Assembly (NCBI GenBank): GCA_036007925.1
Contig: DASYOJ010000119.1
Span: 1 to 40,464, forward strand
Origin: Candidatus Nanopelagicales bacterium
GTDB taxonomy: Bacteria; Actinomycetota; Actinomycetes; S36-B12
DNA: 40,464 nt
Direction of reading: 5' to 3'
In this document: positions 4,043-22,213 of the stretch, one piece after another
How positions within the stretch are numbered: the stretch's first letter is position 1
Layout of the letters: each line of letters opens with the position of its first letter
Translations under genes and position numbers: made by a program
Notes under the pieces: model-generated
What the model was told of the DNA's origin: nothing
Databases searched by the model: none
The model's input: the letters and a program-made list of their open reading frames with translations, nothing else

Positions 4043-4118
4043 TAGTGACAACAGTGACCGGGCAGGAGACATTCCCCTAAGAACTCGCAATTCGAGTGAT
4101 CTACATCACATACAAGGG

Positions 4119-5462
4119 TCAACTACGCCTGTCGCGCTTGAACCGATCGGTGGCCATCGGGGAATCGGTGAAACGGATCCGGGCCGGAACTTGCCACGGC
4201 TCCAGCGATGCCAGGCAGGCCGCGCGGATCCGACCGCGGATCTGCGCGCGCAGCCCGGGGTCGGACTGCTCGGTGTAGACCGTGGCTGCCACCAGGTGGC
4301 CGGTGAGCGGGGTCGGCTCGGCGGCCACCGCCACATCGAGGACGCCGGGTACCTCGGCGATCACCGATTCCACGGTAGCCGGGTGGACCTTTTGACCCCC
4401 GACGTTGATGGTGTCGTCTCGGCGGCCCAGGAAACGGATGCGATCGCCGTCCACTTCGACCTCATCACCGGTGTCGAACCACCCATCACGGTCGAAGGGA
4501 TCCGGCGCGTTCAAGTAGCCGGCCATCGCGGTGGTCGTGCGGATACGCAAGGTGCCGTCGACCACTCTCCACTGCAGTTCCGGACCTCCGATCGACACCC
4601 AGGTCGACTCGTCTACCGATCGAGACCGAACGATGCCGAGTTCGCTCATGCCGTAGGTTTGTAGCAATCTCACGTGGGGCAGTGCTTCGCGCACCGCGGA
4701 GAGGGTCGAAGCCGGCATCACCTCCGTGCCATAGGTGATCAGCTCAAGGCTCGCAAGCCGCGGCAGCTCCTGCGCTATCGCGAGCATGTTCAAGTAGGTG
4801 GGAGTAGTGGGCAGCACCTGGACACCTTCAGCCTGTATGCGCTCGGCGACCACACGCGGACTCCGATCGGGCATCGTGACGACGCAACCACCGTGCGCGA
4901 GGGTATGCAAGACGGTGTTGACACCCCCGATGTGATCGGACAGTAGGAAGGCTGCAACCTTCGCGGCTGGCCGTTGATCCTCAAACCGAGTCAACAGGCG
5001 GTTGACGTCATGCACCACACCTTTCGGTTCACCACTCGATCCACTGGTGAACAGGACAAGTCCGGGCGCATCCGCGGCGATCAACCGTTGATACGGCACC
5101 GGTGGGTGGGTGTCAGGACCAGAGTCGATACGCACACCGATCGGCTCCAAAGCCAACTCACCGCGCACATGGGCGATATCCCTCAGCCGTGCAACGGTGG
5201 CGACCGGAACCGACGGGTTGATGGGAACGGCCACCATGCCACTGGCCCAACTACCGAGCAGCCCAGCCATCCCGAGTCCACCGTGCTCAGCGCGAACTTC
5301 CAGCGCATCCCCCAACTCCAGGTCGCTCGCATCGATTGCGTAACGAACTTCCTCGCAAGCGGACAACAGTTCCGCGTAGGTCCAGGACCGTGAAGGTTCG
5401 GCGATTGCCTCGCGATCTCCGTAGCCACGAAGCCGATCGAGGAATACGGCGATGCCGCTCAC
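4119..5462 (-). CDS. Short ANL-superfamily adenylating enzyme (acyl-AMP/acyl-carrier-protein ligase-like)
   Basis: 447 aa. Motifs LFTSGSSGEPKGVVH (A3), YGMSELG, WFDTGD and FLGRRDDTINVGGQKVHP. GTGA overlap with the upstream SDR stop (5459-5462). Confidence 0.85.
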   Translation of the reverse strand: MSGIAVFLDRLRGYGDREAIAEPSRSWTYAELLSACEEVRYAIDASDLELGDALEVRAEHGGLGMAGLLGSWASGMVAVPINPSVPVATVARLRDIAHVRGELALEPIGVRIDSGPDTHPPVPYQRLIAADAPGLVLFTSGSSGEPKGVVHDVNRLLTRFEDQRPAAKVAAFLLSDHIGGVNTVLHTLAHGGCVVTMPDRSPRVVAERIQAEGVQVLPTTPTYLNMLAIAQELPRLASLELITYGTEVMPASTLSAVREALPHVRLLQTYGMSELGIVRSRSVDESTWVSIGGPELQWRVVDGTLRIRTTTAMAGYLNAPDPFDRDGWFDTGDEVEVDGDRIRFLGRRDDTINVGGQKVHPATVESVIAEVPGVLDVAVAAEPTPLTGHLVAATVYTEQSDPGLRAQIRGRIRAACLASLEPWQVPARIRFTDSPMATDRFKRDRRS

Positions 5463-6166
5463 GGCCCACCGAGATACATGATCTGCCCGGTCACGAGTTG
5501 GCTGCGCTCATCGAGGAAGAACGACACCGTCCAGTAGACGTCCTCCATGGTGGCTGGCTCCGACGAACTCAGCCGGGCCTGCAAAGCATCCAACGCGCTA
5601 CGCGGCACGCCGGAGGTCAGGTCGGTCGCGATCGCGGACGGCCCGATTGCATTGACCGTGATACCCCACTCGGCAAATTCCCGAGCCATCACTCGAGTCA
5701 GGTGCTCAACAGCCGCCTTACTTGCTCCATAGGCGGCCTCGCCCTCAAGGTGCAGTGGTACGGCAATCGAGGAAAGGTTCACGATCCGCGGCGACGCACT
5801 CTTGCGCAGGGCCCGCAGCGCCTCTCGGGACACCGTGAAGGTACCTACCGTATTTACCTCGAACATCCGAGCGACGGATTCAGTGGATGCCAAAGCAGCC
5901 GCGTTCATGGAGGCTATTCCGGCGTTGTTGACAACGGCGTCCAACCCACCGAAGTGCCGCTGGACGCGCCGGATTCCGGCGCGAACCGATTCAACATCCG
6001 TGACGTCCATTGGGAAGGACAGTTCCCGGGCACCCTCGACTTCCGCGCAGGTCCGGCTCACCGAAGCGACCGCCCAGCCATCGGCCACGAGGCGCTGGGC
6101 CAGGAACTCGCCGATTCCTCGACTCGCTCCAGTGATCAGGGCTACACGGCTCACGAAGCACCTCAC
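5459..6166 (-). CDS. Short-chain dehydrogenase/reductase (FabG-like)
   Basis: 235 aa. Rossmann motif ITGASRGIG, NNAG and catalytic YGASKAAV (YxxxK). GTGA overlap with the upstream ACP stop. Confidence 0.88.
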   Translation of the reverse strand: MRCFVSRVALITGASRGIGEFLAQRLVADGWAVASVSRTCAEVEGARELSFPMDVTDVESVRAGIRRVQRHFGGLDAVVNNAGIASMNAAALASTESVARMFEVNTVGTFTVSREALRALRKSASPRIVNLSSIAVPLHLEGEAAYGASKAAVEHLTRVMAREFAEWGITVNAIGPSAIATDLTSGVPRSALDALQARLSSSEPATMEDVYWTVSFFLDERSQLVTGQIMYLGGP

Positions 6167-6465
6167 CCACCCGAAGGGGTGGCCACTTGCTCGATGACGA
6201 AATCGCGAATGGTGCCGACAGTTCGCAAGGGACTGCGTTCCCGCGACATCGCTGTGTCGCTGGTCAAGGAAACCTCCGCACCGAAGTCCTCGTCGATACG
6301 CGCTTCGATCTCCATGACCACGGATACCAACCCCACGGAATCCAAGAAGGCCTCGGGCCCAATGAGCAAAGTCTCCGAATCCACCTGGGCAACCTCGATG
6401 CCGCGCTCGTCGGCGATCTGTCGAACCACCTCGATGATGACCGCTTCAGCGTCTTCGGGCGTCAC
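6163..6465 (-). CDS. Free-standing acyl/peptidyl carrier protein
   Basis: 100 aa, acidic helical protein with the phosphopantetheine-site-like FLDSVGLVSVVMEIE. GTGA overlap with the upstream methyltransferase stop. Confidence 0.75.
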   Translation of the reverse strand: MTPEDAEAVIIEVVRQIADERGIEVAQVDSETLLIGPEAFLDSVGLVSVVMEIEARIDEDFGAEVSLTSDTAMSRERSPLRTVGTIRDFVIEQVATPSGG

Positions 6466-7157
6466 TGCTGCACGCCTTTGATGGCGATTTCGAAGCCGAG
6501 GGCGAATGGACCGTCCTCGGGTGCGGTGATGACAGTGCGATCGGTCAAGCCTGCGGCTTCGATCAGTGCACGGGCATCAGCCAGCGACAACTTCTCCTCC
6601 ACGATCGACTCCGGTACGCCGTACTTCTCCCGCTCGGCATTGAAGGCGGCGCGGGCGTCGGGGTGCGCATCACGACGCACATCATGGATGACCACCATGC
6701 CATCGGGCGCCACCACACGAGCCATCTCCTTCACCGCCTCGAGCGGATCACGGAAGTGGTGCAAGGTCGAGCGGCTGATCACCAACGCAGCTGACGCGTC
6801 GGGAACGGGGAGTTCGTGAGCATCCCCGAACCGCACTTCCACCTGCGAACTCAACCCTGCTTCGGCCACCGCACGATTCGCCTCGGCAACCATGTCATCG
6901 AAGGAGTCCAGCCCGATGAACTGCAATTGCTCCAGTTCCGGTTCACGGGCAGCTCGGACGAGGAACTGCGCGGTTCCCGTTCCGATATCGACTAAGGTGC
7001 CTGTGCTGTCGCCGCGTTCGGACAGGATCTGCCCCAGCCGCCAGACCAAAGCATCGTCGAAGTGGCGCACGGCATTGGCGGTGTATTCGTCGTACTTGCT
7101 TGCGGAGTAACGGACCGCGAGGTCCTCCTCCATCTTCGGAACGCTTCCTTCGCTCAT
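6462..7157 (-). CDS. Class I SAM-dependent methyltransferase
   Basis: Motif I is LVDIGTGTAQF. Start set at the ATG (7157) in an ATGA overlap with the upstream gene's stop (7154-7157). The ORF track extends to 7181. Confidence 0.82.
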   Translation of the reverse strand: MSEGSVPKMEEDLAVRYSASKYDEYTANAVRHFDDALVWRLGQILSERGDSTGTLVDIGTGTAQFLVRAAREPELEQLQFIGLDSFDDMVAEANRAVAEAGLSSQVEVRFGDAHELPVPDASAALVISRSTLHHFRDPLEAVKEMARVVAPDGMVVIHDVRRDAHPDARAAFNAEREKYGVPESIVEEKLSLADARALIEAAGLTDRTVITAPEDGPFALGFEIAIKGVQQ

Positions 7158-8083
7158 GCCGATGCCTCCTCGTAGCCCCATTTGCGTTTGAGATTCTCCA
7201 GTCCCTCATCACCGAGCACCTCCCTGGCGATGACACCGAGTTCCTCACGGGTCAGGCCGGTGTCTCGCAGGAACTCACCGATCCAATGGTCGAGAGATGC
7301 ACCATCGGTCACCTTGCCCCCGGCGAAGCGGGCCACCAGTTGCTGGGCGTACTCGCGGCGCGCCGGGATCATGATTTCGTCCATCGACACACCCTCAGCG
7401 AGCGCTCTTGTTTCCAGGGTGGGTTGCCGCCACGCATCATCCGTAGTCATCACGACCGGCCAACCGCGCACGTCCACCACCGCGTAGCCGGACAGCGCAT
7501 CGGCCCAATCAGCGATATCGGCAGGTGAACACATGGCGATACGACCGCCGGCAGCTGCGAAGGGGACGAGTCGTTCGGTGTCGATCAACTCGACCATCGC
7601 TTCATGCACCCCCGGATAGATCGGATTCGCGACATCATCGACGATCGCCACGCCCCCGGCGCACAGGAGCTCGGCGGTGGTCAGCAGGTCGTGCAAGGTG
7701 CCCTCGTAGGTGTGATCTCCATCGATGCTGACCATGCGCACGGAGGATGCGCCCAGGGCGGCGAGTTCCGTGCGAATGCGGGTGGCATCGATGTCATTGG
7801 TGTTCCCCATCACCATGCTCGCATTCGTCAGGCCGTAGGACTCGATGTGCGGGCGAACGTGTGCATCATCGAGGTCCAAGCCGAGTACGGGACTGTCCGG
7901 ATCCAGTAATGCCAACAGGATGAGGCTGCGTCCGTGGTGGACACCGAATTCCACGCGAGCGCCTGACGTACCACGCTGCTGTTGACGTGCGTCGATATCG
8001 CAGATCAGTTGCGCAGCTCCGGGCTGCAACCAGCCGTCTACGTTCTCCAGTGAATCCAGGTATTGCCGCACCGCTTCACTCAT
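7154..8083 (-). CDS. SAM-dependent methyltransferase-like protein (Methyltransf_24/TylF-like core) with a C-terminal extension of about 90 aa
   Basis: VEFGVHHGRSLILLA ... SIDGDHTYEGTLHDL resembles the class I MT fold of the O-MT family 3/TylF type. ATG at 8083 is preceded by AAGGAGG at 6 nt spacing. The C-terminal third has no motif I recognise. Confidence 0.65.
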   Translation of the reverse strand: MSEAVRQYLDSLENVDGWLQPGAAQLICDIDARQQQRGTSGARVEFGVHHGRSLILLALLDPDSPVLGLDLDDAHVRPHIESYGLTNASMVMGNTNDIDATRIRTELAALGASSVRMVSIDGDHTYEGTLHDLLTTAELLCAGGVAIVDDVANPIYPGVHEAMVELIDTERLVPFAAAGGRIAMCSPADIADWADALSGYAVVDVRGWPVVMTTDDAWRQPTLETRALAEGVSMDEIMIPARREYAQQLVARFAGGKVTDGASLDHWIGEFLRDTGLTREELGVIAREVLGDEGLENLKRKWGYEEASA

Positions 8084-9266
8084 GGCCAACCTCCTTGAGC
8101 TGAATCAGGACGAGCGAATCAATGTCGTCCCATTGATCCCGGTCGGCGTTCTTCATCCCCCGAACGAAATCGTTGAATTGCTCCTCGGACAGCGAGATCC
8201 CCCGCTCGTGCAGCTCCCGTTCGAATGCCGCTCGCCCGGAACTCGGCCCAAGCACCAAGGCCAGCGGGGGTCCACCGACCTTGTCCGGCTCCCATGGCAG
8301 GTACGTGGTGGGGTTCTTCAAGATGCCGTCCTGATGGACGCCCGCTTCAGTTCGGTAGATGTTCTCGCCCACCAGAGCCTTGTGTAGATGGGTCGGCGGG
8401 CCGGTGCGTGTCGCACCCAAGCGACATGTGTCGTACAAGCGAGACAGGTCCAACATAACCGGACGTTGGTAACGGTCGACGTGAACATCGAGGCACATCG
8501 CCACTTCCTCGAGGGATGCGTTTCCGGCTCGCTCCCCGACCCCGTTCAACGCCACCTGTGCGATATCCGCACCGGCATCGACTCCGGCGACGGTGTTAGC
8601 TACCGCGAGCCCGAGATCATCATGGAAGTGAACCGCGAAGAGCGCTTCTGCTAAGCCGGGAAGTTCATCGAAAAGGTACCCAAGCCGTTCTCGAACATCC
8701 TCGGGGGTGGCGATGCCCACGGTGTCGGTGTAGCCGAGTACGCGAGCACCGGATTCCAGCGCAGCGCGGTACAACCGCACGAGCACCTCCGGTTCGGTGC
8801 GAGTGGCGTCCTCCGGACTGAACGCACAGGTGCCGACGGTTGCCACGGCATGGGCCACGCTCGCGCGAACTGTGGCCTCCAACTGGTCGACATCCATGTG
8901 GAGTTTGTCCCGTCGATGCACGGGACTACTACCCAGGAAGACCGTCACGGCACGGCGTTCGGGCGGCAACTCGCCCAGAGCAACGGCCACCGCGTCGATA
9001 TCGGACTCCCGCGCTCGAGCCAGTCCGGAAATGATGATGCCGTCCACCTCGGCCGCTACCCGTTGGACGGCGGCGAGTTCCCGCTCGGAGTTGGCCGGAA
9101 AGCCGGCGTCGATACTCGCAACACCAAGATCGCGAAGCGCACGCGCGAGTTCGACTTTCCCATCGGCGTCGAGCAGCGATCCGGGCATCTGATCACCTTC
9201 ACGCAAGGTTGTGTCGCTGAAGATGACCGGGCGCGGCCGCTCGTCGATCCGTGAAGCCCTGCTCAT
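8076..9266 (-). CDS. DRE-TIM metallolyase, 2-isopropylmalate/homocitrate synthase-like, lacking the LeuA regulatory domain
   Basis: [13 protein letters not shown] (DTTLRDGEQ motif) and [14 protein letters not shown] (HxH motif). About 397 aa from the ATG at 9266, which forms an ATGA overlap with the upstream stop. Confidence 0.82.
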
Positions 9267-10204
9267 GTCGCGAACTGCCCCATCCGCACGTAGATAAGCC
9301 GATCGGGATCCTGCGATTCGGTGCGTCCGTGCGCGGTTGTCGTGTTGTTGACCGCGAGGATCTCCCCCGGCTGCCAATCCACTCGCTGCTCCAGAGCTTC
9401 ACCGGCTGCGTAGACGGCGTAGACGATCTGCTCGGGAACACGCTCACCCTCGGGAGTGCGGATAACGATCGGCGGAGTGCGTCCTGACTCCTCGTGTAGG
9501 ACATCACCCGCCGTCCCAGCATCGGCGATCTGTTCACCGAACCACACCGGCAGCAGGCTGCTGAGCAGCCGCTCGGTTCCGTCGACACCGGCGACGATCG
9601 CGCTAGTCCGATATTGAGTGGTCACCACATCAGACTCGCGGTTGTACGTCATGGTGGTGTTGTTGGCCTGACAGATGCGATCCACCTCGTCGAGATCCTC
9701 GGTCATGAACGCCTGCCGCCAATCGGATCCTTCGAGTCGACGGTGGTAGACGAGATCATTCGCCCGCAGGTACTCGCGCACTTCCTCGGGCAGTGCTGCC
9801 AACAACTCGGCGCCATCGCACACGGTCGTCTCGCCACCTCCTCCCGCGGGCGGCACCTGGCAGTAGAACCACAAGACCTGTGGTCGCTCCTGGAAGTAGT
9901 ACATCTCCCCGTGCAGTGGAACCGGGAACGTCTGCGTGGATCCCGTTGCTGTCAGGATCGACGATTCGGTGTCGACCGTGGCTCGGTCGAGGGACCCAAA
10001 CCGGAACCCACCACCGCGGTAGTCGTGCCAGTCGGCGCAGATGGCATCGCTGATGGACACGAAATCATCGAGCGACGCATCGAACCCGCGGATCGCAACG
10101 CTTCCGGCGGTACGCAGCGCTCGGGCCACCTCCTGCGGATCGATGTCCGCGAACGACGAATCGTCGGACTCCTTCCTGATGGTCACGAGTGTGTCAGTGG
10201 TCAT
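9263..10204 (-). CDS. TauD/TfdA-family Fe(II)/2-oxoglutarate dioxygenase
   Basis: PLHGEMYY (HxE), GGGETTVCDG and TTAHGR (distal His plus Arg). About 313 aa from the ATG at 10204, which forms an ATGA overlap with the PKS stop. Confidence 0.78.
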   Translation of the reverse strand: MTTDTLVTIRKESDDSSFADIDPQEVARALRTAGSVAIRGFDASLDDFVSISDAICADWHDYRGGGFRFGSLDRATVDTESSILTATGSTQTFPVPLHGEMYYFQERPQVLWFYCQVPPAGGGGETTVCDGAELLAALPEEVREYLRANDLVYHRRLEGSDWRQAFMTEDLDEVDRICQANNTTMTYNRESDVVTTQYRTSAIVAGVDGTERLLSSLLPVWFGEQIADAGTAGDVLHEESGRTPPIVIRTPEGERVPEQIVYAVYAAGEALEQRVDWQPGEILAVNNTTTAHGRTESQDPDRLIYVRMGQFAT

Positions 10205-13200
10205 GTTTGATCCCTTCGCTCGTAACAGATTCCCAATACCGCCCCCGGGGGCCGCAAGAGCATCACCGGCCACAACGTGCTCGCATCGTCGGGTCCAGCC
10301 ACGATCAGCGAGTGCTTCCAGGGATCGCGCGCCATCACCGGCCAGCGGCGGATGTTTCCGCCGAGTCCAGTTCCCACCGCCTTCGCGGCTGCTTCCTTCG
10401 CAACGAGCACTTCGATGGTTCGGGTGACTCCCGATTCGACCATCTCGCTCTCCCGCTCCGTCAGGGCGCGGTCGATCGCGGCTGTATCGCGATCGCTGGC
10501 CTCGATATCAATACCTAGTACCGCTCCAGGACGGGCTGCACCCGCCACGATCATGGACTTGCTGTGGGTCAAGGACACCACCGGGACCCCACCGATCGAT
10601 TCCAGCGGCGGGCAATGCACGTAGGGCGCACCTTCCGTGGTCGTCAGGATCTCGACGTCGGCAGGTTGTAGATCCACTCCGTGGTGATGCAAAACCCACG
10701 CCCGCACCGCATCCTTCATGGCGATTCGGCCCAGCAACCATTCGATCCGTCGGGCTGGCTGCGCCCGCATTCCGTACCAGGAGCGCCGTTCACCGGCGGT
10801 CAGTGATACGTGCGCAAGGACACGCGACCAGATCCCGTACCCCGAAACCAGGAAGTCCGGTTGCACCTCGGTGATGGCCCGCAACGTGACCGGAGGTGGC
10901 CCCACCGGCCAATCGACGCTGAGCATCTCGCGTGCCGGATTCAACAGGTACATCAAGAAACGGGTCGGGAACGCGAAGACCCGTTGCCGTAGACCAACGA
11001 ATCGGGCCACAACGCTTCCGGATCCATCGATGATGTCGATGTCCGCGCACGTGCCGACATCGTCGCTTTCGCGGATACGCACCTCGAACCGAACGGGTGT
11101 GCCCTCAGGGATCAGCGGACCGTAGACCTCGTACGCCTCCGCGAAGTAGGGGAATGCGCCCACGGTCTGTGCGTTGTGCTCGTTGGCCCAAAAGGACACG
11201 AGCTGGCCGCAGGTATCGGCAAGGAACGGATCCATCTCCATGCGGGGACGCAGTGAGTAATCGGGGTGCAGATCCACCCGACGACGACGTCCCCGGGCCC
11301 TCACACGATCCCCTGTCACCTCGTCCACCACTTCCACGGCCCGGAAGGCCGGGCCGTGGAAGAGGCCGGAGTACAGACCCCGCGCCGGGCCTTCGGACCA
11401 ATCATCCGAAGCTCCCGGGGGCGCTGGCAGATAGCGATCGGCGAGCACCACCTGCGCTTCGAAGGCCACGTACTCCGGACCGGCATCCGAGGGATCCGCC
11501 GGTGCGATATGCGGATCGCGGATCACCACCACCCGAACGTCCACGAGATCTTCCCCGGATTGCGTCGCTTCGATTCGGACGGTGGCCTCACCTGCATCGA
11601 GGGCGACCCAGCGGTGAGCGCGCATGTTGCGCACCTGCGTGCAGACCAGGTGATCACCCACAAGATCGCGGGCTGCTTGGGCCACCATCTCCATGCTCGC
11701 GGTGAAGGGGACCACTGCCAACGGTGTCAATGACGAATCGCGCTGTGAGACCACACCACCGATCGCGTGGTGGGCGACGGCGGGATCGGTATCGGAACGG
11801 AAGACCTTGATGTGCGTCGATGAATGAGCCGTGCGCTCCACGCACTCACCGAGTATCCATTCGCGATCGCTGCGGCTCTCTTCGAACAACTCCTCCCCGA
11901 CGATCGCACGCACGGCCGCCGATCCCATCACTGTCTCCTGGGCCTGAACGAACTGACGCATGAGCGTCAGATGGGTCTCCAATGCATGGGCGTGATCACC
12001 GGAACTCGCGCGGCGCGCGATCGGTTCCCCGATGCTTGGCTCCAACTCCAGCAGGTCCACCGGGTCTTCGATCCGGTCCCCGAGAGCGCCGCGGATGCGG
12101 TGCAGCCACGTGACATCGACATCCAGGCCGTGGATCCACAGCGCCGCGAGCGTACGCAGGGAGGTGGTGAGTGTCCCGGCCGCAGAGTCCATGGATAGAA
12201 CAAGAACACCCGTTCCACGCAACACGTCGGTGGAACATGCGCTGAGCATCGTGCCCGGGCCTACTTCCACGAGGCACGTCAATGCCTGTTCTTCGACCAT
12301 CCGGGCGACCGTCGCGGCGAAGTCGACTGGCTTCCACCATTGCTCTGCGAGCAGATCACGGATTGAGTCGGCATCGGCGTCGACCCGTTCCCGGGTGGAA
12401 CACGAGTACCAGGGGAGTCGCGCACGGCGGACGTCGATGTCCTGGTACGCCTCGCGCATCATCTCGGCGCGAGGGGTGAACGCTTCGGTGTGGTAGGCCA
12501 ACGTGAACGGTAGTTCCCCGATCAGTGTCCCCGGAGCGCGCACTGCGGCCAGGAATTCCTCTCGATGCTCGTCGGCAACCCAGACCACGCAGACGTTCGG
12601 TGCGTTTATGTTCGTGATGACGGCCGTGGGTGTCTGTTCGACCACGCTGCGGACGTCTTCAACCGCTCGACCATTGATGGCGAATGTGGCACCGGGCGGC
12701 AGCGGGAATCTCTCGGCAGCGGCAACTTGGACTTCGGTAACCCGCGCGATCGCGGGCATCAACGCATCGGTGCGCATTCCGCTGACCGCACCGCTGATCA
12801 CACCGGCGGCGAATTCCCCACTCGATTGGCCGAGCACCGCCGATGGCGCTACTCCTAGCCGGGCGAGGGTGTCTGCGGATGCCACGCTCGAAACGGCGAG
12901 GCTCTGCGTCCCACCGAACACGCCCGATAGTTCCGACGGATCGGTGGGTGCCAGCGGTTGCGACCACATCTTGGTGGTCATCGGCTGCACGTCCGACGCA
13001 ACCAGAGTGGAATCGAGTTCGACGAACCAATCCTCCACCGATGGCAGGCAGGCTGCGAGGTCCTGGAACATGCCCGGACGCTGGGAACCCTCCCCGGGAC
13101 AAAGGAAACCCACCTTCGGATGCTCGACTGGTACCCCCAAGACGGTGCCGTCGGGGCTGCGGAGTCGGTCCTTCCCGCCATTGATCGCGGTAATGATCCG

Positions 13201-14631
13201 ATCGATCCGGGCCACTGCCTCATCAGCCGACGCAGCTACCAAGCCGGCCCGATGCTCGGAATTCAACGCCGGACGCTTCGACGCGACAGTCGACAACTGC
13301 ACGCCGTCGAGAAGTTCGTCTCGAGCCGCGCTCAGTGACTGGCGAAGCGTTTCGAGATCCGAGCCGCCGAACAGAAGTACTTCGACCGGCCAGTGGGCTG
13401 GAGCGGGTCGGGATTCGCGTCGCGACTCTTCGATGACCACATGCGAATTCGCTCCACCGAAGGCGACGGTGTTGACGCCCATGCGCCGCACGCCACTGCG
13501 TAGGGGCACGGGCGTGAGGGTGGTGGCCGCGACCTGCTCGCTGTTCATCTCGATGCGACGCCGGGGTCCGGTTCCGACTGACGGGGTGATCACCCCGTAG
13601 TGCACGCTCAAGATGGCCTTCATCAATCCGCCCATGCCGCCAGCGGCCAGGGCGTGACCCAAAAGCCCCTTCACCGAACCCACGAGCCAGGGTTGCTCGC
13701 CGCGTAACCGCTCCAGCGTTCGCCACTCGGAACGATCACCGATGTCCGTTCCGATGGCGTGAGCCTCGACTGCGGAGATGTCGTCGGGCCCGAGTCCGCC
13801 GATGCGCCAGGCTTGCTCGATCGCACTGGCCAAGCCCTCGGGCCGAGAAGTCAACAAACCCAAGCTGCGCCCGTCGCTGGATTGACCGACCGCGCGGATG
13901 TCGGCGTATGACTCACCCGCACGGATGTCCGTCGTGCGCTTGAGGACGAGGAAACCAACACCTTCACCGATGAGAGTGCCCACGGCATCGGACATGAAGG
14001 GACGGCATTCATCATCCGCCAACATGTCCACGGCCGCGAAGGACTCTTGGACACCGCGGTCCAACCACGGTCCGACCGCACCCACCAAAACCGCATCGAC
14101 CGTACCCGCGGCCAGCATCAGCCGGCCGGTCTCCACGGCAGCCACGGCCGAAGAGCACGCAGCATCCACCACCTGCTGCGGACCGTGCAGATCCAACTCC
14201 GACGCGATCCGTCCGGCCAGCAGATTGGGGTGAATCGAGGTCACCAGATCGCTGTCCATCTGGTGACCGTGGGCCCATGCTTGTTGCGGACGGCCCAACA
14301 GGGTGGAAGTGCCGACCAGCACAGCGCACGAGCGCCGCAACTGCTCGTCCAGGCCCGCATCGCGAACCGCCCGACGTGCCACATCGACCGCTATCAAGTG
14401 CCACGGCTCACCCACGCGCAGTACCGACGGCGCCGGGAGCGATTCGCGATCCATGACCAACGGTGCGAACCCGCCGAATCGCGGACCCGCGCTTTCCGCG
14501 CGGAGGGTGGGCGCCTGGGACGTCTGCGGCACTCCTCCGACGAGCACCGACCAAAGCCGGTCGAGGTCCGGCGCACCGGGGAAGGTCGCAGCCATGCCCA
14601 CAACGCTCGTCGTGGTGTGCGGATTCGTCAT
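10201..14631 (-). CDS. Iterative type I PKS/PUFA-synthase-like protein B: KS-AT-DH-PPTase
   Basis: KS motifs DAACSS, EAHAIGTDIGD and KGLLGHALAAGG. AT motif GQSSGEF. DH motifs AHHAIGGVV..LAVVP, LFHGPAFR and DTCGQL. C-terminal PPTase motifs WLLGRIAMKDA, LGIDIE and VAKEAAAKA. ATG at 14631 forms an ATGA overlap with protein A's stop. Confidence 0.9.
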   Translation of the reverse strand: MTNPHTTTSVVGMAATFPGAPDLDRLWSVLVGGVPQTSQAPTLRAESAGPRFGGFAPLVMDRESLPAPSVLRVGEPWHLIAVDVARRAVRDAGLDEQLRRSCAVLVGTSTLLGRPQQAWAHGHQMDSDLVTSIHPNLLAGRIASELDLHGPQQVVDAACSSAVAAVETGRLMLAAGTVDAVLVGAVGPWLDRGVQESFAAVDMLADDECRPFMSDAVGTLIGEGVGFLVLKRTTDIRAGESYADIRAVGQSSDGRSLGLLTSRPEGLASAIEQAWRIGGLGPDDISAVEAHAIGTDIGDRSEWRTLERLRGEQPWLVGSVKGLLGHALAAGGMGGLMKAILSVHYGVITPSVGTGPRRRIEMNSEQVAATTLTPVPLRSGVRRMGVNTVAFGGANSHVVIEESRRESRPAPAHWPVEVLLFGGSDLETLRQSLSAARDELLDGVQLSTVASKRPALNSEHRAGLVAASADEAVARIDRIITAINGGKDRLRSPDGTVLGVPVEHPKVGFLCPGEGSQRPGMFQDLAACLPSVEDWFVELDSTLVASDVQPMTTKMWSQPLAPTDPSELSGVFGGTQSLAVSSVASADTLARLGVAPSAVLGQSSGEFAAGVISGAVSGMRTDALMPAIARVTEVQVAAAERFPLPPGATFAINGRAVEDVRSVVEQTPTAVITNINAPNVCVVWVADEHREEFLAAVRAPGTLIGELPFTLAYHTEAFTPRAEMMREAYQDIDVRRARLPWYSCSTRERVDADADSIRDLLAEQWWKPVDFAATVARMVEEQALTCLVEVGPGTMLSACSTDVLRGTGVLVLSMDSAAGTLTTSLRTLAALWIHGLDVDVTWLHRIRGALGDRIEDPVDLLELEPSIGEPIARRASSGDHAHALETHLTLMRQFVQAQETVMGSAAVRAIVGEELFEESRSDREWILGECVERTAHSSTHIKVFRSDTDPAVAHHAIGGVVSQRDSSLTPLAVVPFTASMEMVAQAARDLVGDHLVCTQVRNMRAHRWVALDAGEATVRIEATQSGEDLVDVRVVVIRDPHIAPADPSDAGPEYVAFEAQVVLADRYLPAPPGASDDWSEGPARGLYSGLFHGPAFRAVEVVDEVTGDRVRARGRRRRVDLHPDYSLRPRMEMDPFLADTCGQLVSFWANEHNAQTVGAFPYFAEAYEVYGPLIPEGTPVRFEVRIRESDDVGTCADIDIIDGSGSVVARFVGLRQRVFAFPTRFLMYLLNPAREMLSVDWPVGPPPVTLRAITEVQPDFLVSGYGIWSRVLAHVSLTAGERRSWYGMRAQPARRIEWLLGRIAMKDAVRAWVLHHHGVDLQPADVEILTTTEGAPYVHCPPLESIGGVPVVSLTHSKSMIVAGAARPGAVLGIDIEASDRDTAAIDRALTERESEMVESGVTRTIEVLVAKEAAAKAVGTGLGGNIRRWPVMARDPWKHSLIVAGPDDASTLWPVMLLRPPGAVLGICYERRDQT
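10231..10878 (-). other. Protein B integrated Sfp-type 4'-phosphopantetheinyl transferase domain (approximate)
   Basis: SLTHS, LGIDIE and LVAKEAAAKAVG ((F/W)xxKEAxxKA), plus the N-terminal pseudo-repeat WLLGRIAMKDAV. Confidence 0.8.
10966..11868 (-). other. Protein B PKS-type double-hotdog dehydratase domain (approximate)
   Basis: HHAIGG...P (HxxxGxxxxP-like), GLFHGPAFR (YGPxF-like) and DPFLADTCGQL (DxxxQ). Confidence 0.7.
12241..13119 (-). other. Protein B acyltransferase domain (approximate)
   Basis: FLCPGEGSQ...GQSSGEFAAG nucleophile elbow and LAYHTEAF. Confidence 0.75.
13426..14610 (-). other. Protein B ketosynthase domain (approximate)
   Basis: Active-site Cys in VVDAACSS. Both His motifs are present but deviant (HAIGT instead of HGTGT). 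Confidence 0.8.
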
Positions 14632-17600
14632 CTCGTCCACGGCCCGTCTCCGATCACGATGTCGACGAAACCCGGATCCACTGCAGCCGATGCCGCCTCG
14701 ATAACGAAAGCACGCGCTCCAACTGTCGGCTCGATGACATGGATCCCGCGCTCGCGCAGTAGATCAGCGACGACTTCGCTGACCATGCCCTGCAGGCCGG
14801 TTCCGAACCACGGTCCCCATTGGATGGCGCGCACTCCCGTTACAGGCCAACGCTCGGCCCAACTGGCGGCAAGGACAGTCATGGCCTCATTGGCCGCTGC
14901 GTACGCGGACTGCGCGGGGTTACCGAAGGCTCCCGTCACGCTGCCGAAAACCACCATCCAGGACGGAATATTCTCCGCCCGTGCCAGGGACCGGCATACG
15001 TTGTCCAGGCCGAGCACCTTGGTCTCGATCACCGCGCGAGCATCGGTGAGGTCGAGTTCGACCAGCGGTGCATCCCGCACGATTCCCGATCCGAAGACAA
15101 CGCCGTCAATGCGACCGTGCTCGGTTAGCACCGCATCGATCACCGAATCGACTTGCGCGATATCGCGGACATCCGCCGGCAGCGCTTGCCAACCCTCGGG
15201 CAACTCCCATTCCGCAGCCGATCTGCCGACCACGATCACGGTGCAATCCGGCAGGGCTTCCACTGCGGCACGTGTGATGCCCCGAGCGCCGCCGAAGGCA
15301 AGCACTACGTTCCCCCGAAGCACCGACAGGTCGACGTCACTCACCACCTGCTCGGCGAGGCGCATGTCGATCGAACGAAGCCCCGTCTCCTCGGAAATGC
15401 GGAGTCTGGTGGTCGCATTCTCGCCTCGCTCTGCGGCTACACAGCGGGCGGCGGCGGCGACAGTCCGCACCGGGCCTACCGCCCCTTCGATCACCGACAG
15501 GTCGGACGGCGAGGTTTGCCACCGGGAGAGGGCGTCCATCGCCGATTCGATGAGCACGGCTGCGGCCTTGCTGTGATCGTCAGCGTGTACCTCGCTGGTA
15601 CAGAACGCTTCGCCAGCGACCACCGGCACGTCGACCCACGTGCGCACCCGACGAGGAACCTCCACTTCATCGCCGGAAGATGCTCGTGCTTCGCTGCCGT
15701 CTTCTTGCAGAGCTACGACGATCTCGCGAACGGTGCGCAACCGACTCAAGTCCACGCCCTCGCGCCGCTCGATGCCCAGCCGTTCACGCAGCATGGACAA
15801 GATCTCCACGCGCTTGATGGAATCCACCCCGAGTTCGGATTCCAGGTCCATGTCCGCTCCGATCACACCCGGATCGAACCCGGTGCGATCGCTGATGAGT
15901 GCTACGAGGACTTCCTGGATGTCGGCAGGAGCGCTCGAGTCCGGCATCGACGCGGCGGCAACCGGCTCATCGCGCTTGGGCTCCACGAGAACCTCACGCT
16001 GCGCAACCCCGGGAGTGAGCCGCGGCGTGGGTGGAGTGATGCGTGGGCGGCGAACACCGCCGGATGTCTGGCCGAGGGCCTGGTCCATCACCTGCTCGTG
16101 AACCCGCAGGAAGTCTTGCATCGTGCGCTGGAACTCCACGACCGCATCGCTAGAGCCGATGTTCGTCGCTGCAAGCACCTGCCCGGCGGTCTGCGCCGTC
16201 AGCATCGGCTCCCGGCCGTCGTAATCGCCATCCATCCGACCGCGACGTACGCCTCCACCATCGACGAACCAGGTGGTGTCGTCGGTGCCACGCAGCGCGT
16301 CTTCACCGGGCACCGGGAGTCGACCCTCGAACAGTGCCTGCACGCTGTCCACCGCACCGAGCGTCCACAACTCGCCGATCGCATCGAGGACACCGGACAT
16401 CGGGCGCCCGGGTCGTTCCAGCGGCACGACGCGGGCGTTCGGATCGATCTGTGTGATCAACGACGACGCAGTCGAACCGGGCCCCATTTCGACGAAGACC
16501 GATACCCCTGCCTCGACCGCCCGTTGGACTTGCTCCACGAATCTCACCGGCTGCATCAGGTGGTCGGACATCCGCTGGCGAATCTCTTCGACGCTCGCCG
16601 GGTACGACGCACCATCGGCATTACCGATGACCGTGATCGACGGAGGGGCGAGCCGATAGCCGGCGATTGCGCCCGTCAACGGGCCGATCGCATCGGTCAT
16701 CAATGCCGAATGGAAGGCACCGCCAACGGGAAGGACCACCGCCGATGCTCCAGTGTCCGACGCACGACGCGCAATGTCCTCGACATCAGCGCGGGCTCCG
16801 GAGACCACCATTTGGCGGGGGGCGTTGAAGCACGCCACCGTCGCTTCAGTTCCTGACACCAATTCGGCGGCCGTGTCTGCATCGATCTCAAGGGCCGCCA
16901 TTGTGCCGCGGCCGTCGTCGCTCGCGGCCATTGCGGCGCCGCGCACGCGCGTTAGATCGACCAGGTCCTCGCGACCCAAGACTCCAGCACGGTGCAGCGC
17001 CATGAACTCGCCGTAGGAATGACCGAAGGCAACCGTTGGACGAACACCCAACGAGTCCAGCAAGTCCGCCAAGCCCATGCCGAGCGCAGCGAGGGCGCTT
17101 TGCGCCATCCGGGTATCGGCGATCCTGGAGCGCTGCGCGTCGGCCTCGTGATCGGATCGCGCGCGGAACGGATAGATGGTTTCGATGAGGTTGTAGGGCA
17201 GTTCATCACCGATAAGCGCATCGACCAGCGCAAGTGTCCGGCGAAGGTCCGGAAGATAGACCGAGGCCTCGCGCAGGCTATTGATCCGTTGCGCGGCCTG
17301 TCCCGGGAAGATCTCGGCGACGTTCGGAGGTGTGGTCACCTCGACGAGGTCGCTGTAGTCGTCTTCCTTCCATCGGGTTGCACATTCGCGCAGTTGCCCT
17401 GCCGCATCGAGCGGATCGAGCATCACGAGCGCGAAGCGCCACGGCCCACTCGCAGCGCGCGCCGCACCGTGGGCGACGTTTCGAGGAATGCTGCCGCGGA
17501 TCTCCAACTCCGCCGCCAACCGTTCGGCCTGCTGCGCGGCATCACTCGGCGTACTGGCTCCGATCACCAGCAACTCGGCTGGCCAGCGCTGTGCACCGAC

Positions 17601-20600
17601 AGCCGCGCCATCAGCTGATTCCAAGACCACGTGGGTGTTGGTTCCACCGAAACCAAAGGCGCTGACCGCGGCGAAGCGCGCCGGATCGAGCCACGGCACG
17701 GACTTGTCGTACAGGACCACCGAGCCGGCCTCGTCCCGAAGCGAGTCGATAGGTGCCTGGACGCTCGGCTGCCCTGGTCGTACCCCGTGATGCAAGGCCA
17801 TGGCCGCCTTCATCAGGCCCAGCACCCCGGCACCAGCCTTCGCGTGACCCATCTGTGCCTTGATCGAACCGACCGAACACGATGTGGACGACAACCCACG
17901 AACCTCACTGATCGTGGTGATCTCCGTTCGATCACCGACAACCGTCCCGGTGCCGTGCGCTTCATAGAGCCCCACCTGTGCAGGCTCGACATCGCAACTG
18001 TCATAGGCACGGCGCAGCGCGAGTTGCTGACCGGAGCTTTGTGGAGCAGTCAGGCTCAAGCCGCGACCATCCGAACTCGAGCCACTACCGCGGATGACCG
18101 CGTAGATGCGATCCCCATCTCGCCTGGCGTCCTCGAGGCGCTTGAGCACGAGAATTCCCACCGCTTCGCCGATCACGATGCCATCAGCGGACTCATCGAA
18201 CACATGGGCTCGATCTCTCGGTGACAACGCGTGGCTTGCGGCAAACGACAAGTACACGCGCGGCGCCATCGCGGTATCCGCGCCGCCGGTGATGACGACA
18301 TCGGTCCGACCGGTTTCCAACTCACGGATAGCAGCCTCGACCGCAGCTAAGGACGATGCGCACGCCGAATCGACGGTGTGATTCGGCCCCTTGAAGTCGA
18401 AGCGGTTGGCGATGCGTCCGGTCGTTACGTTGTTCAAGAAGCCGGGGAAGGACTCTTCGGTCCAACTCGGGAGTCTGCTCCATGCTTGTTCCTCCACGGC
18501 TGCACTGACACTGGAAAGCATCGCCCGTGCGGCGTACCCCTCGCCGATATCGCCACTGCTCGAGGACATTCCGACGATCACCCCGACTCGGGATCGATCG
18601 ACGCGACTGGCGTCGAACCCGGCGTCGGCCAAGGCTCGACGTGTTACCTCCAGGGCGATCAACTGTGCCGGTTCGATGTGCGCAAGGGCCGTGGGCGGGG
18701 TGCCAAAGCGCATGGGGTCGAAGGGGATCGGATCGATGAAGCCGCCATGAACGGCCACCGTCGGATCCGGGGCTGCCGGATCAGGATCGAGTACCCGCGC
18801 TGGATCGAATCGCTCGGGGGGAATCGGTCGAGTGGCCACCCGCTGCTGCACCACGGTGTCCCAGAAACCAGCAAGATCACTGGAATCGGGAGCTACGACG
18901 GACATCCCGACGATGGCCACCGGGACCGACTTGATGGCATCTGCGCGATGTGGCGCTTTCGTATCCCAGGTCGCATCGATCACCTCCCGGCCTCCGGCTA
19001 GGACGTCTTCGTGCAGCGCAGCGATGTTGGTCACGTGCGCGTGCATCGTCGCAACATCCCCGAGCATGTACATGCCTTCACGCAACTGCCGATCGCGGTC
19101 GACCGAGACAACCGCCTCCCCCTCACGGATCTCGGCGCGGCTTGCCATGCGCAGCCGTCCGAGGGTGAGGGCTTCGAGGTGACTCGATCGGGTTTCCGGA
19201 TCCACACCGGTCAGTTCGCGAGCTCGTGCTTCGAACTCCGAAACGAAACCGCTCATCGCAACTCGCGTGGAGTGGCCCACCGCGGTGGTGACCGTGCTCG
19301 TGCGATCGCACGACAACGCAACATCTTGGAACAATTGAGGAATCGCCCCACTGCTGACCGCTTCCTCAGTGAACAAGTACGCGGTTCCCATCAGCAAGCC
19401 GACGGACACTCGATCGAGGAGGCCGCCGAGTTCCCAGGATGCGAGCGTGGCAGCCGCCGCCGAACTCACCGAATCGTGGATGCCCCCTGCAAGGAAGACC
19501 GAGGCCTGCGCGGACTCATCTGCTCGGAGTAGATCGGCGATCTCATGGAGCGCCGACTGCCACAAGACCGCACTCGAGAGCGGGCCGACATGGCCGCCGC
19601 ACTCGTACCCTTCGAGGACGAAGCGTCGAACCCCCGCTTTCCACAGCAAAGACACGATCCGTGCAGTTGGAGCGTGCGCATAGGTGATGATCCCGTGCGA
19701 TTCGAGATCGAGCACCTGATCGGGGCGGGCGCCGGCAACCACCGCAACCGAAGGCCGGGTACGCAGCACCGCTTCATGTTGCGGCTGCCAGATGTCCTGC
19801 GGCGCGAAGCCGAGCATGCCAACACCCCACGCGCGATCGGCGAGTTCCGCGCTCGTCTCGCTGAGTACGTCATTTGCTGCCGGGCCCCGCTTGAGAGCAA
19901 GGGCCACGAGCGGCAACGCACCTTCCTGCGCCACCGCACTCGCGAATCCCGGGACATCGCTGACTCTGGTCATCGGCCCTTGAACGAGCGGTGCCCCAAG
20001 GCCTAGTTCCCCGCACAGCGGCGAACCACTTCCGAGCAGACTCTCGGCGCGCGCCGCAAGCGCCGCTTCGGGATCGAGCCGGTAGCCCGACAGCACCGTA
20101 GATAGCGGCCGATCGACGTTCTGCCACGCGATCGCCAGCCCCTGACCCACGGGAATGAGATCGGAGAAAACATCCCGCCAACCCCACGGCAAGTCCTCAC
20201 TTCCACGATCGAAATCCGCCACCAGCGATGCTTGGACCTCCTGGGCAACGGGCAGGTTTCCCCGCAGCAGGAAACGCACTTGCCTGTCTGCTGGTCCGAG
20301 CGCCACCGCTTCGGTTCCATCAAGGTCGCGCACGGTACTGCGTAGCCCGGTGATCCGCGCTTGGCTTGTCAACACCAACTCATCGCGCAACACCACACCA
20401 GCAGCACCTGCAGTTCGCAGTGCTGCGGCAATGGACGGACTGATCGCACCGAAGGCGAGCACCTCACGTGCCCCTACTTTGCGCGCTTGCTGTAGGAGGA
20501 TCGCGGTAGATGTCGATCCGATCGCTCCGCCGGATTCCGACCCGCGCACAACCACGTGATCGTCGCTCGCGAACAACTCGACGATGCGCTGCGCATCGGT

Positions 20601-20936: not shown

Positions 20937-22213
20937 GCGACCGCCCTGCTTCCCAGCAGATGGTCGATGAGGAAGTCGGCCCCGGTGCGGACTCCGTCGT
21001 CGTGGGCGATGGATTCGGCGAGGTCCTGCGCGCGGGTGCGGTAACGGGGTTCATCCACGGCATTGCCGATCGCCCGAGCCAGCGATTCGACCTTCAGTTC
21101 CTGGATCGGGAGCGATGCCGGAGCTACCCCCAAGGCCAGTGCGCGATATCCCCAGAAGGGTTGATCCAGACAGAACGGAACCACTACCTGCGGAACGCCG
21201 GCGCGGTAGGCGGCAGCGCTGGATCCCACCCCGCCGTGGTGAACGAACGCCCGTACCCGCGGCAGCAGCCAGTCATGCGGGAGTCGGTCCACCACCAAGA
21301 CATCATCACCACGGACCGAATCCGGATCGAAGGCACCCCATCCACTCAACAGCAGGACTCGTTGACCGGCCCGACGGGCCGCCTCGACCACGGTGCGCGC
21401 CAACGCCCGCGGATCGGGAGCGACCACGCTGGAGAATCCGACCGCGATCGGCGCATCTCCTCCTTCGAGGAACTGCCTCACCTCATGCGGCGGTTGCCAG
21501 GATCCATCAGCGGGCAACCGCCAGTAGCCGACCACTCGCGCCTGCTGTGGCCAGTCCGGTGGTTGCGGAATCACCGCCGGGCTGACACCCACCACAGTGG
21601 GCAGTGCGCGCAAGCGTCGAAGGCTCTGCCTGCTGGATTGAATCGGCAGCCCAAGACGTTCGGCCTCCGCGCCCATGATCTGCACCATCGGACCCGAGCC
21701 CAGCCGATTCAGCGCATCAACAGCCCAGTGACCGAAACGCTGCCCCACGGGTCCGAACCGGGACCAACCCGGCTGCCACAGCGGAGGAAGGGTGCGCGTT
21801 GGCAGTGAGGGGAAGATCGAGGCGACCGCGGCTGGGATGTGCCGCTGATGGGCGAAAGGCGCAGCCCACGCCATCGAGTAGTCCAAGATCACCTTGTCCG
21901 AGGAGTCGATGCAATACGTGATCGCGCGCGCGAGTTGCGCGGTGAAATACGGAAGCGCCTTGCCGTAGAAGCCCGCGATGGAGCGAATGCCCCGGCCCGG
22001 CTCACGAAATGCTCGACCCTCGTCGGTTTCGTAGAAGGCTCGAGTGTCGCCCGGCATCGGGTAGAAGCTCATGCCGCGCTCGATGCACGATGCGCGGTAG
22101 TTCATGTGCGTAGCCATGCGAATGTCCACGCCTTGCTCGACCAGCCCGGTGGCCAACGCGATCATCGGCTCGACATCACCGTTGGTGCCGACGGTCAGCA
22201 CGGTGATCCGCAT
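20933..22213 (-). CDS. GT1-family glycosyltransferase (MGT/UDP-glycosyltransferase-like)
   Basis: 426 aa. MRITVLTVGTNGDVEP N-terminus and the donor-binding HHGGVGSSAAAYRAGVPQVVVPFCLDQPFWG. Confidence 0.88.
   Translation of the reverse strand: MRITVLTVGTNGDVEPMIALATGLVEQGVDIRMATHMNYRASCIERGMSFYPMPGDTRAFYETDEGRAFREPGRGIRSIAGFYGKALPYFTAQLARAITYCIDSSDKVILDYSMAWAAPFAHQRHIPAAVASIFPSLPTRTLPPLWQPGWSRFGPVGQRFGHWAVDALNRLGSGPMVQIMGAEAERLGLPIQSSRQSLRRLRALPTVVGVSPAVIPQPPDWPQQARVVGYWRLPADGSWQPPHEVRQFLEGGDAPIAVGFSSVVAPDPRALARTVVEAARRAGQRVLLLSGWGAFDPDSVRGDDVLVVDRLPHDWLLPRVRAFVHHGGVGSSAAAYRAGVPQVVVPFCLDQPFWGYRALALGVAPASLPIQELKVESLARAIGNAVDEPRYRTRAQDLAESIAHDDGVRTGADFLIDHLLGSRAVA

Follow-up and report, generated by a model that had tools for sequence, protein, structure and literature searches.

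We describe seven genes at positions 4119–10204 of a 40,464-nucleotide stretch of DNA (hereafter the window: positions 1–40,464 of contig DASYOJ010000119.1, assembly GCA_036007925.1, from a Candidatus Nanopelagicales bacterium). The contig is actinobacterial, at 62–65% G+C. All seven genes lie on the minus strand, after the genes for two large polyketide synthase (PKS) proteins, PKS-A and PKS-B, and an initial annotation made from the sequence alone had read them as a single carrier-tethered branch of one pathway. We find instead that they form a mosaic of three separate modules: a TauD-type dioxygenase, an isopropylmalate synthase (IPMS)-like enzyme with a methyltransferase, and a cassette of acyl carrier protein (ACP), short-chain dehydrogenase/reductase (SDR) and ANL ligase.

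The first gene in the order of transcription (9263–10204) encodes a TauD/TfdA Fe(II)/2-oxoglutarate dioxygenase of 313 amino acids (aa; PF02668, 8e-27). Next comes a DRE-TIM enzyme of the IPMS/homocitrate synthase (HCS) type (8076–9266; HMGL-like 9e-65 and HCS_D2 2e-15), which we read as 396 aa and not as the maximal 433-aa open reading frame (ORF). Two methyltransferases follow. MT24 (7154–8083, ~309 aa) is a Methyltransf_24, CmcI/rhamnosyl-O-methyltransferase-like protein (PF13578 8e-12, PF04989 2e-6); we place its start at the ATG at 8083, which has AAGGAGG upstream, the listed TTG start being at 8089. MT1 (6462–7157, 231 aa) is a class-I S-adenosylmethionine-dependent methyltransferase (Methyltransf_11 9e-19, also Methyltransf_25 and Methyltransf_31). 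The last three genes encode a discrete, divergent ACP of 100 aa with Ser43 in the motif DSVGL (6163–6465), a FabG-like SDR of 235 aa (5459–6166; adh_short 2e-47) and, as the final gene of the operon, an ANL adenylate-forming ligase of 447 aa (4119–5462; AMP-binding 3e-35 and AMP-binding_C).

The superfamily assignments that the initial annotation gave for these proteins all hold, by ORF and Pfam analysis and, for the ACP, by an orthologue profile and an AlphaFold2 (AF2) model; every motif that it quoted is intact (for example TGASRGIG, DSVGL and AHGR). It had also called the genes tightly coupled, and indeed they make up the 3' end of an operon that runs from a flippase gene to the ANL gene: start and stop codons overlap by 4–14 nt at the junctions from the gene for a second small carrier-like protein, CP2 (22226–22504), down to the ANL gene. 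The sole non-overlapping junction in that run is a 12-nt gap before a GT1-family glycosyltransferase gene. At the level of curated families, none of the seven proteins reaches an NCBIfam equivalog cut-off, every match falling below it, and MT24 and the 100-aa ACP have no NCBIfam match at all.

To see which of these genes travel together, we compared every ORF in 80 metagenome loci collected with a TauD profile with the proteins of the window cluster, and obtained ten further contexts by exact-protein look-up. The locus set was seeded on TauD, so that associations with TauD carry an ascertainment bias; those between MT1 and its partner enzyme, and those within the cassette, are free of it.

TauD homologues lie adjacent to PKS-A-like neighbours (34–39% identity) in 14 loci that span several phyla, including one in an Allorhizobium genome. 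In 12 of these a GT_PLOD-like glycosyltransferase (254–259 aa) directly follows TauD. Three loci (L009, L031 and L037) have TauD with neither the IPMS-like enzyme nor a counterpart of it, and without MT1, ANL or ACP. Since loci with TauD, PKS-A and the glycosyltransferase occur without ANL and ACP, TauD belongs with the synthase and with glycosylation rather than with the ligase and its carrier.

The dioxygenase itself is well preserved. Its iron triad (H98, E100 and H292) and the 2-oxoglutarate-binding arginines (R302 and R307) are invariant across 25 homologues. It belongs to the TauD/TfdA family by its PF02668 score (95.3 bits against a gathering score of 27), and the AF2 model (predicted local distance difference test (pLDDT) 90) confirms the fold. 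The best structural match in a Foldseek search is At3g21360, with a template-modelling (TM) score of 0.74; ScoE, Rv0097, TauD, CarC and AtsK trail it at TM ~0.55. We dropped an isonitrile-forming role of the ScoE/Rv0097 type: identity in the structural alignments is 10–15% at that TM of ~0.55, and no nonribosomal peptide synthetase (NRPS) or ScoD-like partner gene was seen among the window proteins scanned. The wider TauD clade has other contexts, because a homologue in the cyanobacterium Anthocerotibacter panamensis (L011, 6112–10903; 32% identity) sits among Sulfotransfer_3 genes with no PKS alongside. One metagenome locus, L046, has a class-3 lipase gene (8823–9923) between PKS-A and TauD and encodes a GT28-YdjC fusion protein (18067–20049); the fusion suggests a deacetylated amino-sugar glycolipid.

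The second module pairs MT1 with an enzyme of Claisen-condensing type. All 13 sister loci that have an MT1 homologue and enough flanking sequence hold both, and the two genes are directly adjacent in most of them. The MT1 homologues are 36–47% identical to the window protein, and the Claisen enzyme comes in two kinds. Six loci have an IPMS-like partner (45–47% identity; L015, L024, L028, L029, L034 and L038). The other seven have a divergent citrate synthase (CS)-like protein of family PF00285 (L013, L023, L027, L033, L046, L055 and L059). Mapping the type of partner onto the MT1 and TauD trees requires at least two to three switches.

One such switch can be seen directly. L027 and L015, the latter from Nostoc sp. 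CCY 9925, share TauD and MT1 (4177–6026 and 4054–5935, respectively; 87% DNA identity), then an ABC ATPase and permease (7190–8897 and 6166–7873; 88%), and then a GMC oxidoreductase (10134–11783 and 9513–11161; 87%). Between the permease and the oxidoreductase genes, L027 encodes a 394-aa CS-like protein (8949–10133) and L015 a 410-aa IPMS-like protein (8001–9233), and between these two genes no DNA identity was detected. This is an in-situ non-orthologous displacement, and it suggests a common function for the IPMS-like and CS-like proteins. A fragment of an IS1-family transposase gene lies between a modular PKS and TauD–MT1 in L015 (3616–3909); L024, which is 95% identical to L015, does not have it.

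Both kinds of Claisen enzyme keep recognizable catalytic features. The CS-like proteins retain the His/His/Asp residues and oxaloacetate motifs of citrate synthase (GPxHxGA, GFGHPLF..DPR, PNxD and a later Arg). In NCBIfam they match citryl-CoA lyase and citrate synthase II best, at scores far under the cut-off, and the protein from L013 had no match in the PDB at E <= 1e-10. In the IPMS-like protein of the window, the catalytic motifs LREGDQ, HFHDD and SPED align with those of 3RMJ, 6E1J and 6KTQ, which identifies it as a Claisen-condensing DRE-TIM enzyme. Its nearest relatives in sequence and structure are LeuA and methylthioalkylmalate (MAM) synthase (3RMJ and 6E1J; E 2e-66 and 4e-60).

By cut-offs, domains and pocket residues, the IPMS-like protein is not LeuA, homocitrate synthase or MAM synthase. 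It scores 355.6 bits with the LeuA model NF002086 (cut-off 532), and Pfam finds HMGL-like and HCS_D2 but no C-terminal LeuA_dimer domain, as the initial annotation had said. The LeuA pocket is missing too. At what we take to be positions 167, 250, 251 and 252 of the M. tuberculosis enzyme, IPMS has His, Asn, Ile/Leu and Pro, and the window protein has Thr, Gly, Tyr and Thr. It also differs at these four positions from MAM synthase (Val, Ala, Cys and Pro). Homocitrate synthase is rejected on two grounds: the Arg with which 6KTQ contacts the distal carboxylate of 2-oxoglutarate is replaced by Ala, and the nifV score is 252.9 against a cut-off of 462.9.

The gene is an extra copy in its genome, where the only other HMGL-like gene is 29% identical. 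Its closest relatives outside such clusters are planctomycete proteins of ~413 aa with the same architecture, and a pocket signature S/T...G-F/Y-P/T is common to these and to all cluster-linked relatives. The one planctomycete context examined has no PKS and gave no clue to function. The missing regulatory domain had been taken as a sign of a dedicated secondary-metabolic role; on its own it does not show this, given that the planctomycete relatives are built in the same way.

The third module, ACP–SDR–ANL, has an entirely different set of neighbours. The ANL protein has thousands of homologues of ~450 aa at 43–48% identity, and in 12 independent loci the SDR gene always adjoins the ANL gene. 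Nine of the 12 retain the full order of (~100-aa carrier)–SDR–ANL (L098 6979–9329, L099 6994–9356, L100 7005–9335, L103, L104, L109–L111 and L114). Cassettes occur in a Desulfonatronum genome, a 1.27-Mb contig, a Myxococcales metagenome-assembled genome (MAG), two Actinomycetota and four further Desulfobacterota genomes, at identities to the window proteins of 29–43% (ACP), 39–47% (SDR) and 35–47% (ANL). A phylum-wide search with ANL found only three other Actinomycetota genomes.

We examined five of these contexts. Three contain glycosyltransferases (GT2 and GT4) and three a DegT aminotransferase; individual loci add a Wzt-type ABC transporter, a polysaccharide pyruvyl transferase or a polysaccharide deacetylase, and a hexapeptide acyltransferase and an Acyl_transf_3 protein are also among the neighbours. 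PKS genes and homologues of TauD, of the IPMS-like or other Claisen enzyme and of MT1 are all absent from the sequence examined in these five contexts. A conserved module in genomes without the PKS had been named beforehand as evidence against the single branch, and this is what we find for three of the seven genes. The company that the cassette keeps suggests a portable set of genes for acyl decoration at glycan loci; we found no description of its chemistry in the literature.

The 100-aa protein does not match the Pfam PP-binding domain even at E <= 1, and its identity had to be established in other ways. Searched against the PDB, a profile built from its orthologues recovers ACP and DltC chains (best E 0.03), with the serine of its DSV motif paired with the serine of DSL. 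The AF2 model (pLDDT 90) consists of four helices, the second of which begins at S43, and the top 50 Foldseek matches are mostly ACPs. By profile and model, this is a true carrier protein, if a divergent one, and it is accompanied in the cluster by a phosphopantetheinyl transferase (PPTase) domain at the C terminus of PKS-B. The SDR has the expected TGASRGIG, NNAG and YGASK motifs; its nearest solved structures are mostly 3-oxoacyl-ACP reductases (FabG), and it scores 145 bits with the FabG equivalog models (cut-offs 296–298).

The second methyltransferase, MT24, follows a course of its own. It is found only in actinobacterial versions of the cluster, and its sequence changes much faster than those of the genes around it. 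Between the two actinobacterial variants described below it is 33% identical, with neighbouring genes at 50–70%, and in L020 it is 75% identical, with neighbouring genes at 87–93%. MT24 has no match among PDB sequences at E <= 1, and no MT24 homologue was found in the cassette-bearing Desulfonatronum genome. The two methyltransferases of the initial annotation are both present, but they come from unrelated families and differ in evolutionary behaviour.

Upstream of the seven genes, on the same strand, lie PKS-B (10201–14640; 1479 aa) and PKS-A (14628–20936; 2102 aa). Pfam resolves PKS-A into NMO/enoylreductase (ER), ketosynthase (KS), acyltransferase (AT), ACP and ketoreductase (KR) domains, and PKS-B into KS, AT, two dehydratase (DH) domains and the PPTase. 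A PfaD-type ER, KS, AT, ACP, KR, tandem DH and PPTase thus lie side by side, as in a secondary lipid cluster built on a synthase like that for polyunsaturated fatty acids (PUFA). By Pfam, neither protein has a loading module, a thioesterase (TE) domain or a reductase domain. Further upstream, and again on the minus strand, are genes for a GT1-family glycosyltransferase (20933–22213; EryCIII-like_C, Glyco_transf_28 and UDPGT by Pfam), CP2 (a weak PP-binding match, E 0.011), a MOP/MATE-like flippase (22501–24150; a weak MatE match), a 96-aa protein that we call small96 (24214–24504; no family in Pfam or NCBIfam) and an alpha/beta hydrolase (24648–25532; Abhydrolase_6/1). CP2 homologues are present in sister loci, and follow PKS-B in L046 and L059. 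Homologues of small96 (40–46% identity) occur in L009, L023, L026, L046, L059 and L075. In Allorhizobium, as in five metagenome loci, a small96 homologue stands before the PKS-A-like gene, and L046 has a second small96 paralogue before its CS-like gene.

The entire cluster, from hydrolase to ANL, is contained in a 21.5-kb accessory island (4046–25572). In two congeners (G227 and G144) the dnaK region directly abuts the gene for a CCG-domain Fe-S protein, and nothing at that junction is homologous to 4046–25572 of the window; it is because dnaK and CCG genes adjoin in both that we recognize the insertion as an island. No integrase or tRNA gene was seen at its edges. Close homologues of TauD (E <= 1e-20) are also rare: of 301 genomes in the order only 2 have one, as do 2 of the 10 in the genus, and a TauD scan of genome contigs returned only three near-identical loci.

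The order of nine genes (PKS-A, PKS-B and the seven) is kept in contigs with protein identities of 50–98% in all: 86–96% in several metagenome contigs, and 50–70% in a second, Thermoleophilia-type variant, whose ANL groups with proteins labelled Miltoncostaeaceae (class Thermoleophilia). In that variant an alpha/beta hydrolase gene directly follows the ANL gene, a placement that speaks for the hydrolase as part of the pathway. Two contigs 94–96% identical to the cluster (L002 and L003) are in MAGs labelled 'uncultured Rubrivirga sp.'; Rubrivirga is a non-actinobacterial genus, and the label is probably a binning or labelling error.

What might such an operon make? In the reading that we prefer, and hold with middling confidence, its product is a glycosylated long-chain lipid, assembled by a two-protein megasynthase of PUFA-synthase-like type and then exported, with the seven genes contributing as a mosaic of three modules. 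The substrates and products named from here on are all predictions from sequence.

TauD would hydroxylate the acyl chain and so provide a site for a glycosyltransferase. We link it to a glycosylation site because its constant neighbour is a glycosyltransferase of the procollagen-lysine hydroxylase type. This assignment is a tentative one, and of the three modules it is the one of which we are least sure.

For the second module, the interchange of IPMS-like and CS-like proteins narrows the choice of reaction. To our knowledge, condensation of acetyl-CoA with oxaloacetate to give citrate is the sole reaction known for both the CS and the IPMS/HCS families, and it is for this reason that we propose the IPMS-like enzyme as a maker of citrate. 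Moreover, citrate is achiral, so that Re-type and Si-type enzymes share one product and would be freely exchangeable. The IPMS-like enzyme would condense acetyl-CoA with oxaloacetate, or a similar 2-oxo-dicarboxylate, to give citrate or a close analogue, and would in effect be a Re-type citrate synthase. MT1 would then methylate the citrate-type acid, and the methylated acid would become the polar end of the lipid. Synthesis of citrate, or of a close analogue, by this enzyme, with methylation of the product by MT1, is in our view nearly as probable as not. A citrate- or alkylmalate-type head group had been offered in the initial annotation as an alternative; the co-occurrence of MT1 with an IPMS- or CS-type enzyme in all 13 loci, and the interchange with CS-like proteins, lend it indirect support, the product itself being a prediction. 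Re-citrate synthases are themselves IPMS/HCS-family members, and annotations often call them IPMS or HCS (PMC12016533, PMC8027424).

For the third module, ANL would charge its own ACP with a small oxo-acid for the SDR to reduce to a hydroxyacyl-ACP, and the acyl group would go to the sugar or onto a glycolipid hydroxyl. Our confidence that the cassette loads and reduces an oxo-acid and donates a hydroxyacyl group to sugar just misses an even balance. A role in supplying the synthase with a primer instead is rather unlikely. MT24 probably O-methylates the sugar, and the alpha/beta hydrolase is a candidate for chain release or acyl transfer.

Several observations weigh against this reading. The closest solved relatives of MT1, though with weak scores, are sugar O-methyltransferases (D-glucose O-methyltransferase and RebM). 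Variants of citrate synthase also yield citramalate or alkylcitrates, and the product shared by the two Claisen enzymes need not be citrate. The search with the TauD fold separates no substrate classes, and the TauD-seeded sampling biases any link between TauD and the Claisen/MT1 pair. The window holds no recognizable acyltransferase to transfer the cassette's acyl group, nor the ketosynthase III (KSIII) that is present in the bolagladin system, which we come to below. Finally, cyanobacterial loci place the trio of TauD, Claisen enzyme and MT1 beside a modular KR-ACP, C-A-PCP, KS-AT-KR-ACP-TE line, and because this PKS-NRPS ends in a TE the trio could build a free small molecule and not a lipid end. 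In L027 it adjoins a PfaD-like ER and an aminotransferase. Judged by these neighbours, the trio may provide a unit for differing assembly lines, or a free small molecule.

The strongest rival joins the second and third modules. A citrate-type acid would be made, methylated by MT1, loaded by ANL onto the 100-aa ACP, adjusted by the SDR and used to prime the loader-less synthase, much as has been proposed for bolagladin, whose citrate starter would be made and activated by a citrate synthase, an O-methyltransferase and an acyl-CoA ligase (PMC7756705). The lack of a loading module in PKS-A and PKS-B, the translational coupling of all the genes and a weak full-length NCBIfam match of ANL to the 2-oxoglutaryl-ACP ligase AmcH would all suit such a route, but the sister clusters do not. 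Those with the Claisen/MT1 pair lack the ACP–SDR–ANL cassette, which argues that the pair generally needs no such ligase, and the cassette is found at 43–47% identity in glycan loci that have no Claisen enzyme, so that its substrate is probably a common metabolite. With KSIII also missing from the window, we consider priming of this kind unlikely.

A second rival has the Claisen enzyme act on the product of the megasynthase itself, to give a long-chain alkylmalate or alkylcitrate. In one form, TauD would alpha-hydroxylate the released acid, a dehydrogenase would convert it to the 2-oxo acid and the IPMS-like enzyme would add acetyl-CoA. In the other, the acyl thioester would attack oxaloacetate, which would also free the chain from a synthase without a thioesterase. 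TE and reductase domains are absent from both PKS proteins, and each cluster annotated in detail has an oxidoreductase (the SDR here; GFO_IDH or GMC elsewhere). The H167T and N250G differences would enlarge the pocket in the manner of MAM synthases, which accept long 2-oxo acids, and fungal alkylcitrate synthases, members of the CS family, use acyl-CoA donors. Set against this, we know of no IPMS-family enzyme that takes a long acyl donor and of no CS-family enzyme that takes a long 2-oxo acid; given these limits on donor and acceptor, neither form is chemistry known for both of the interchangeable families. The CS-like proteins, moreover, retain their oxaloacetate-binding motifs, an alpha/beta hydrolase or lipase is at hand for release, and L009, L031 and L037, which lack the Claisen/MT1 pair, must free the chain in another way. 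We judge this rival more improbable than the first.

The single carrier-tethered branch, in which ANL loads an acid onto the ACP, TauD hydroxylates it, the SDR oxidises or reduces it and both methyltransferases methylate it, is the least probable of the three: the seven genes are adjacent and coupled, many TauD/CAS-like enzymes act on carrier-tethered substrates and the lipid-acting ScoE and Rv0097 are among the Foldseek neighbours of TauD (TM ~0.55), but many TauD/MT1 loci have no cassette, many cassette loci have no TauD-type or MT1 homologue, identity to the ScoE-type enzymes is only 10–15% in structural alignments, and the IPMS-like enzyme is left without a role.

We return, then, to the glycosylated lipid with a citrate-type end. 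More broadly, the sister clusters would describe a widespread class of glycolipids, in Actinomycetota, Alphaproteobacteria, Cyanobacteria and uncultured bacteria, built on PUFA-synthase-like enzymes and carrying a methylated citrate-type head or tail made by a cluster-dedicated synthase of Re or Si type. This wider generalization is speculative, and we think it considerably less probable than the reading for the window itself.

How does the window cluster compare with known systems? Pfa-like secondary lipid clusters (the types of Shulse & Allen 2011, the heterocyst glycolipid cluster Hgl and the phenolic-lipid cluster Ars of Azotobacter) have in common with it iterative PUFA-synthase-type domains, a glycosyltransferase and an exporter, and the product predicted here is likewise a long-chain specialised lipid (PMC3098273, PMC13291983). 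For secondary lipid clusters with a PUFA-synthase-like enzyme, few products have been described (PMC13291983). Unlike the Pfa-like clusters, the window cluster has its domains fused into two proteins and an accessory set of its own: TauD, the Claisen enzyme with a methyltransferase, and the ACP–SDR–ANL cassette. We found no characterized cluster or pathway with this set in the literature. For one family of such clusters, our comparison defines a recurrent accessory set of TauD, Claisen enzyme and methyltransferase, glycosyltransferases and a 96-aa partner. It also carries a caution for genome mining, namely that tightly coupled sub-clusters can be mosaics whose parts should be interpreted separately.

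The IPMS-like protein resembles Re-citrate synthase of the Clostridium kluyveri type in its DRE-TIM fold and its lack of a LeuA domain, and the exchange of its slot with a protein of the Si-citrate synthase family is what would be expected of two routes to achiral citrate. Known Re-citrate synthases, however, serve the tricarboxylic acid cycle of anaerobes and not a biosynthetic cluster. With LeuA and MAM synthase it shares the conserved catalytic Arg, Asp/Glu, His-x-His and Glu; it is unlike LeuA in having no regulatory domain and a score under the cut-off, and its pocket is unlike that of either enzyme. We predict that the IPMS-like and CS-like proteins are isofunctional, their common product being a small acid and, in the simplest case, citrate. 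If this is true, no IPMS-family enzyme before the window protein would have been shown to act in the assembly of a lipid natural product, and the swap would be a natural case of isofunctional enzyme displacement inside a biosynthetic cluster.

The bolagladin system is the nearest parallel for the second module. There, a citrate synthase dedicated to the pathway acts with an O-methyltransferase and a ligase to give a fatty chain a methoxy-dicarboxylate end; the tricarboxylic-tail module consists of the citrate synthase BolR, the O-methyltransferase BolS, the ligase BolB and the KSIII proteins BolM and BolP (PMC7756705). In both systems a Claisen enzyme recruited from central metabolism is combined with a methyltransferase, a ligase and a carrier protein are nearby, and the lipid has (bolagladin) or is proposed to have (the window) a polar carboxylate terminus. 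The enzymes differ, that of the window belonging to the IPMS/HCS family and that of bolagladin being a Si-citrate synthase, although sister clusters of the window use a CS-like protein. Of the bolagladin-type priming set, the Claisen enzyme, methyltransferase and ligase are present in the window and KSIII is absent; the ligase is missing from the sister clusters with the Claisen/MT1 pair. The window also lacks an NRPS, unlike bolagladin; its assembly line is a PUFA-like synthase, and its ligase belongs to a separate cassette.

The cassette has its closest likeness in the acyl-decoration sets of glycan loci. In Vibrio cholerae O1, for example, perosamine receives its N-acyl group with the help of an ACP and an AMP-ligase among RfbK-O. 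Sets of this Rfb type combine an ACP, an adenylate-forming ligase and a reductase amid glycosyltransferases and aminotransferases; the likeness is one of context. For glycan work, the trio of ACP, FabG-like reductase and ANL is a pointer to a chemistry that is apparently undescribed. In the examined Desulfobacterota, Myxococcales and Actinomycetota loci it shares the glycan context of the Rfb-type sets, whereas in the window it sits in a lipid cluster.

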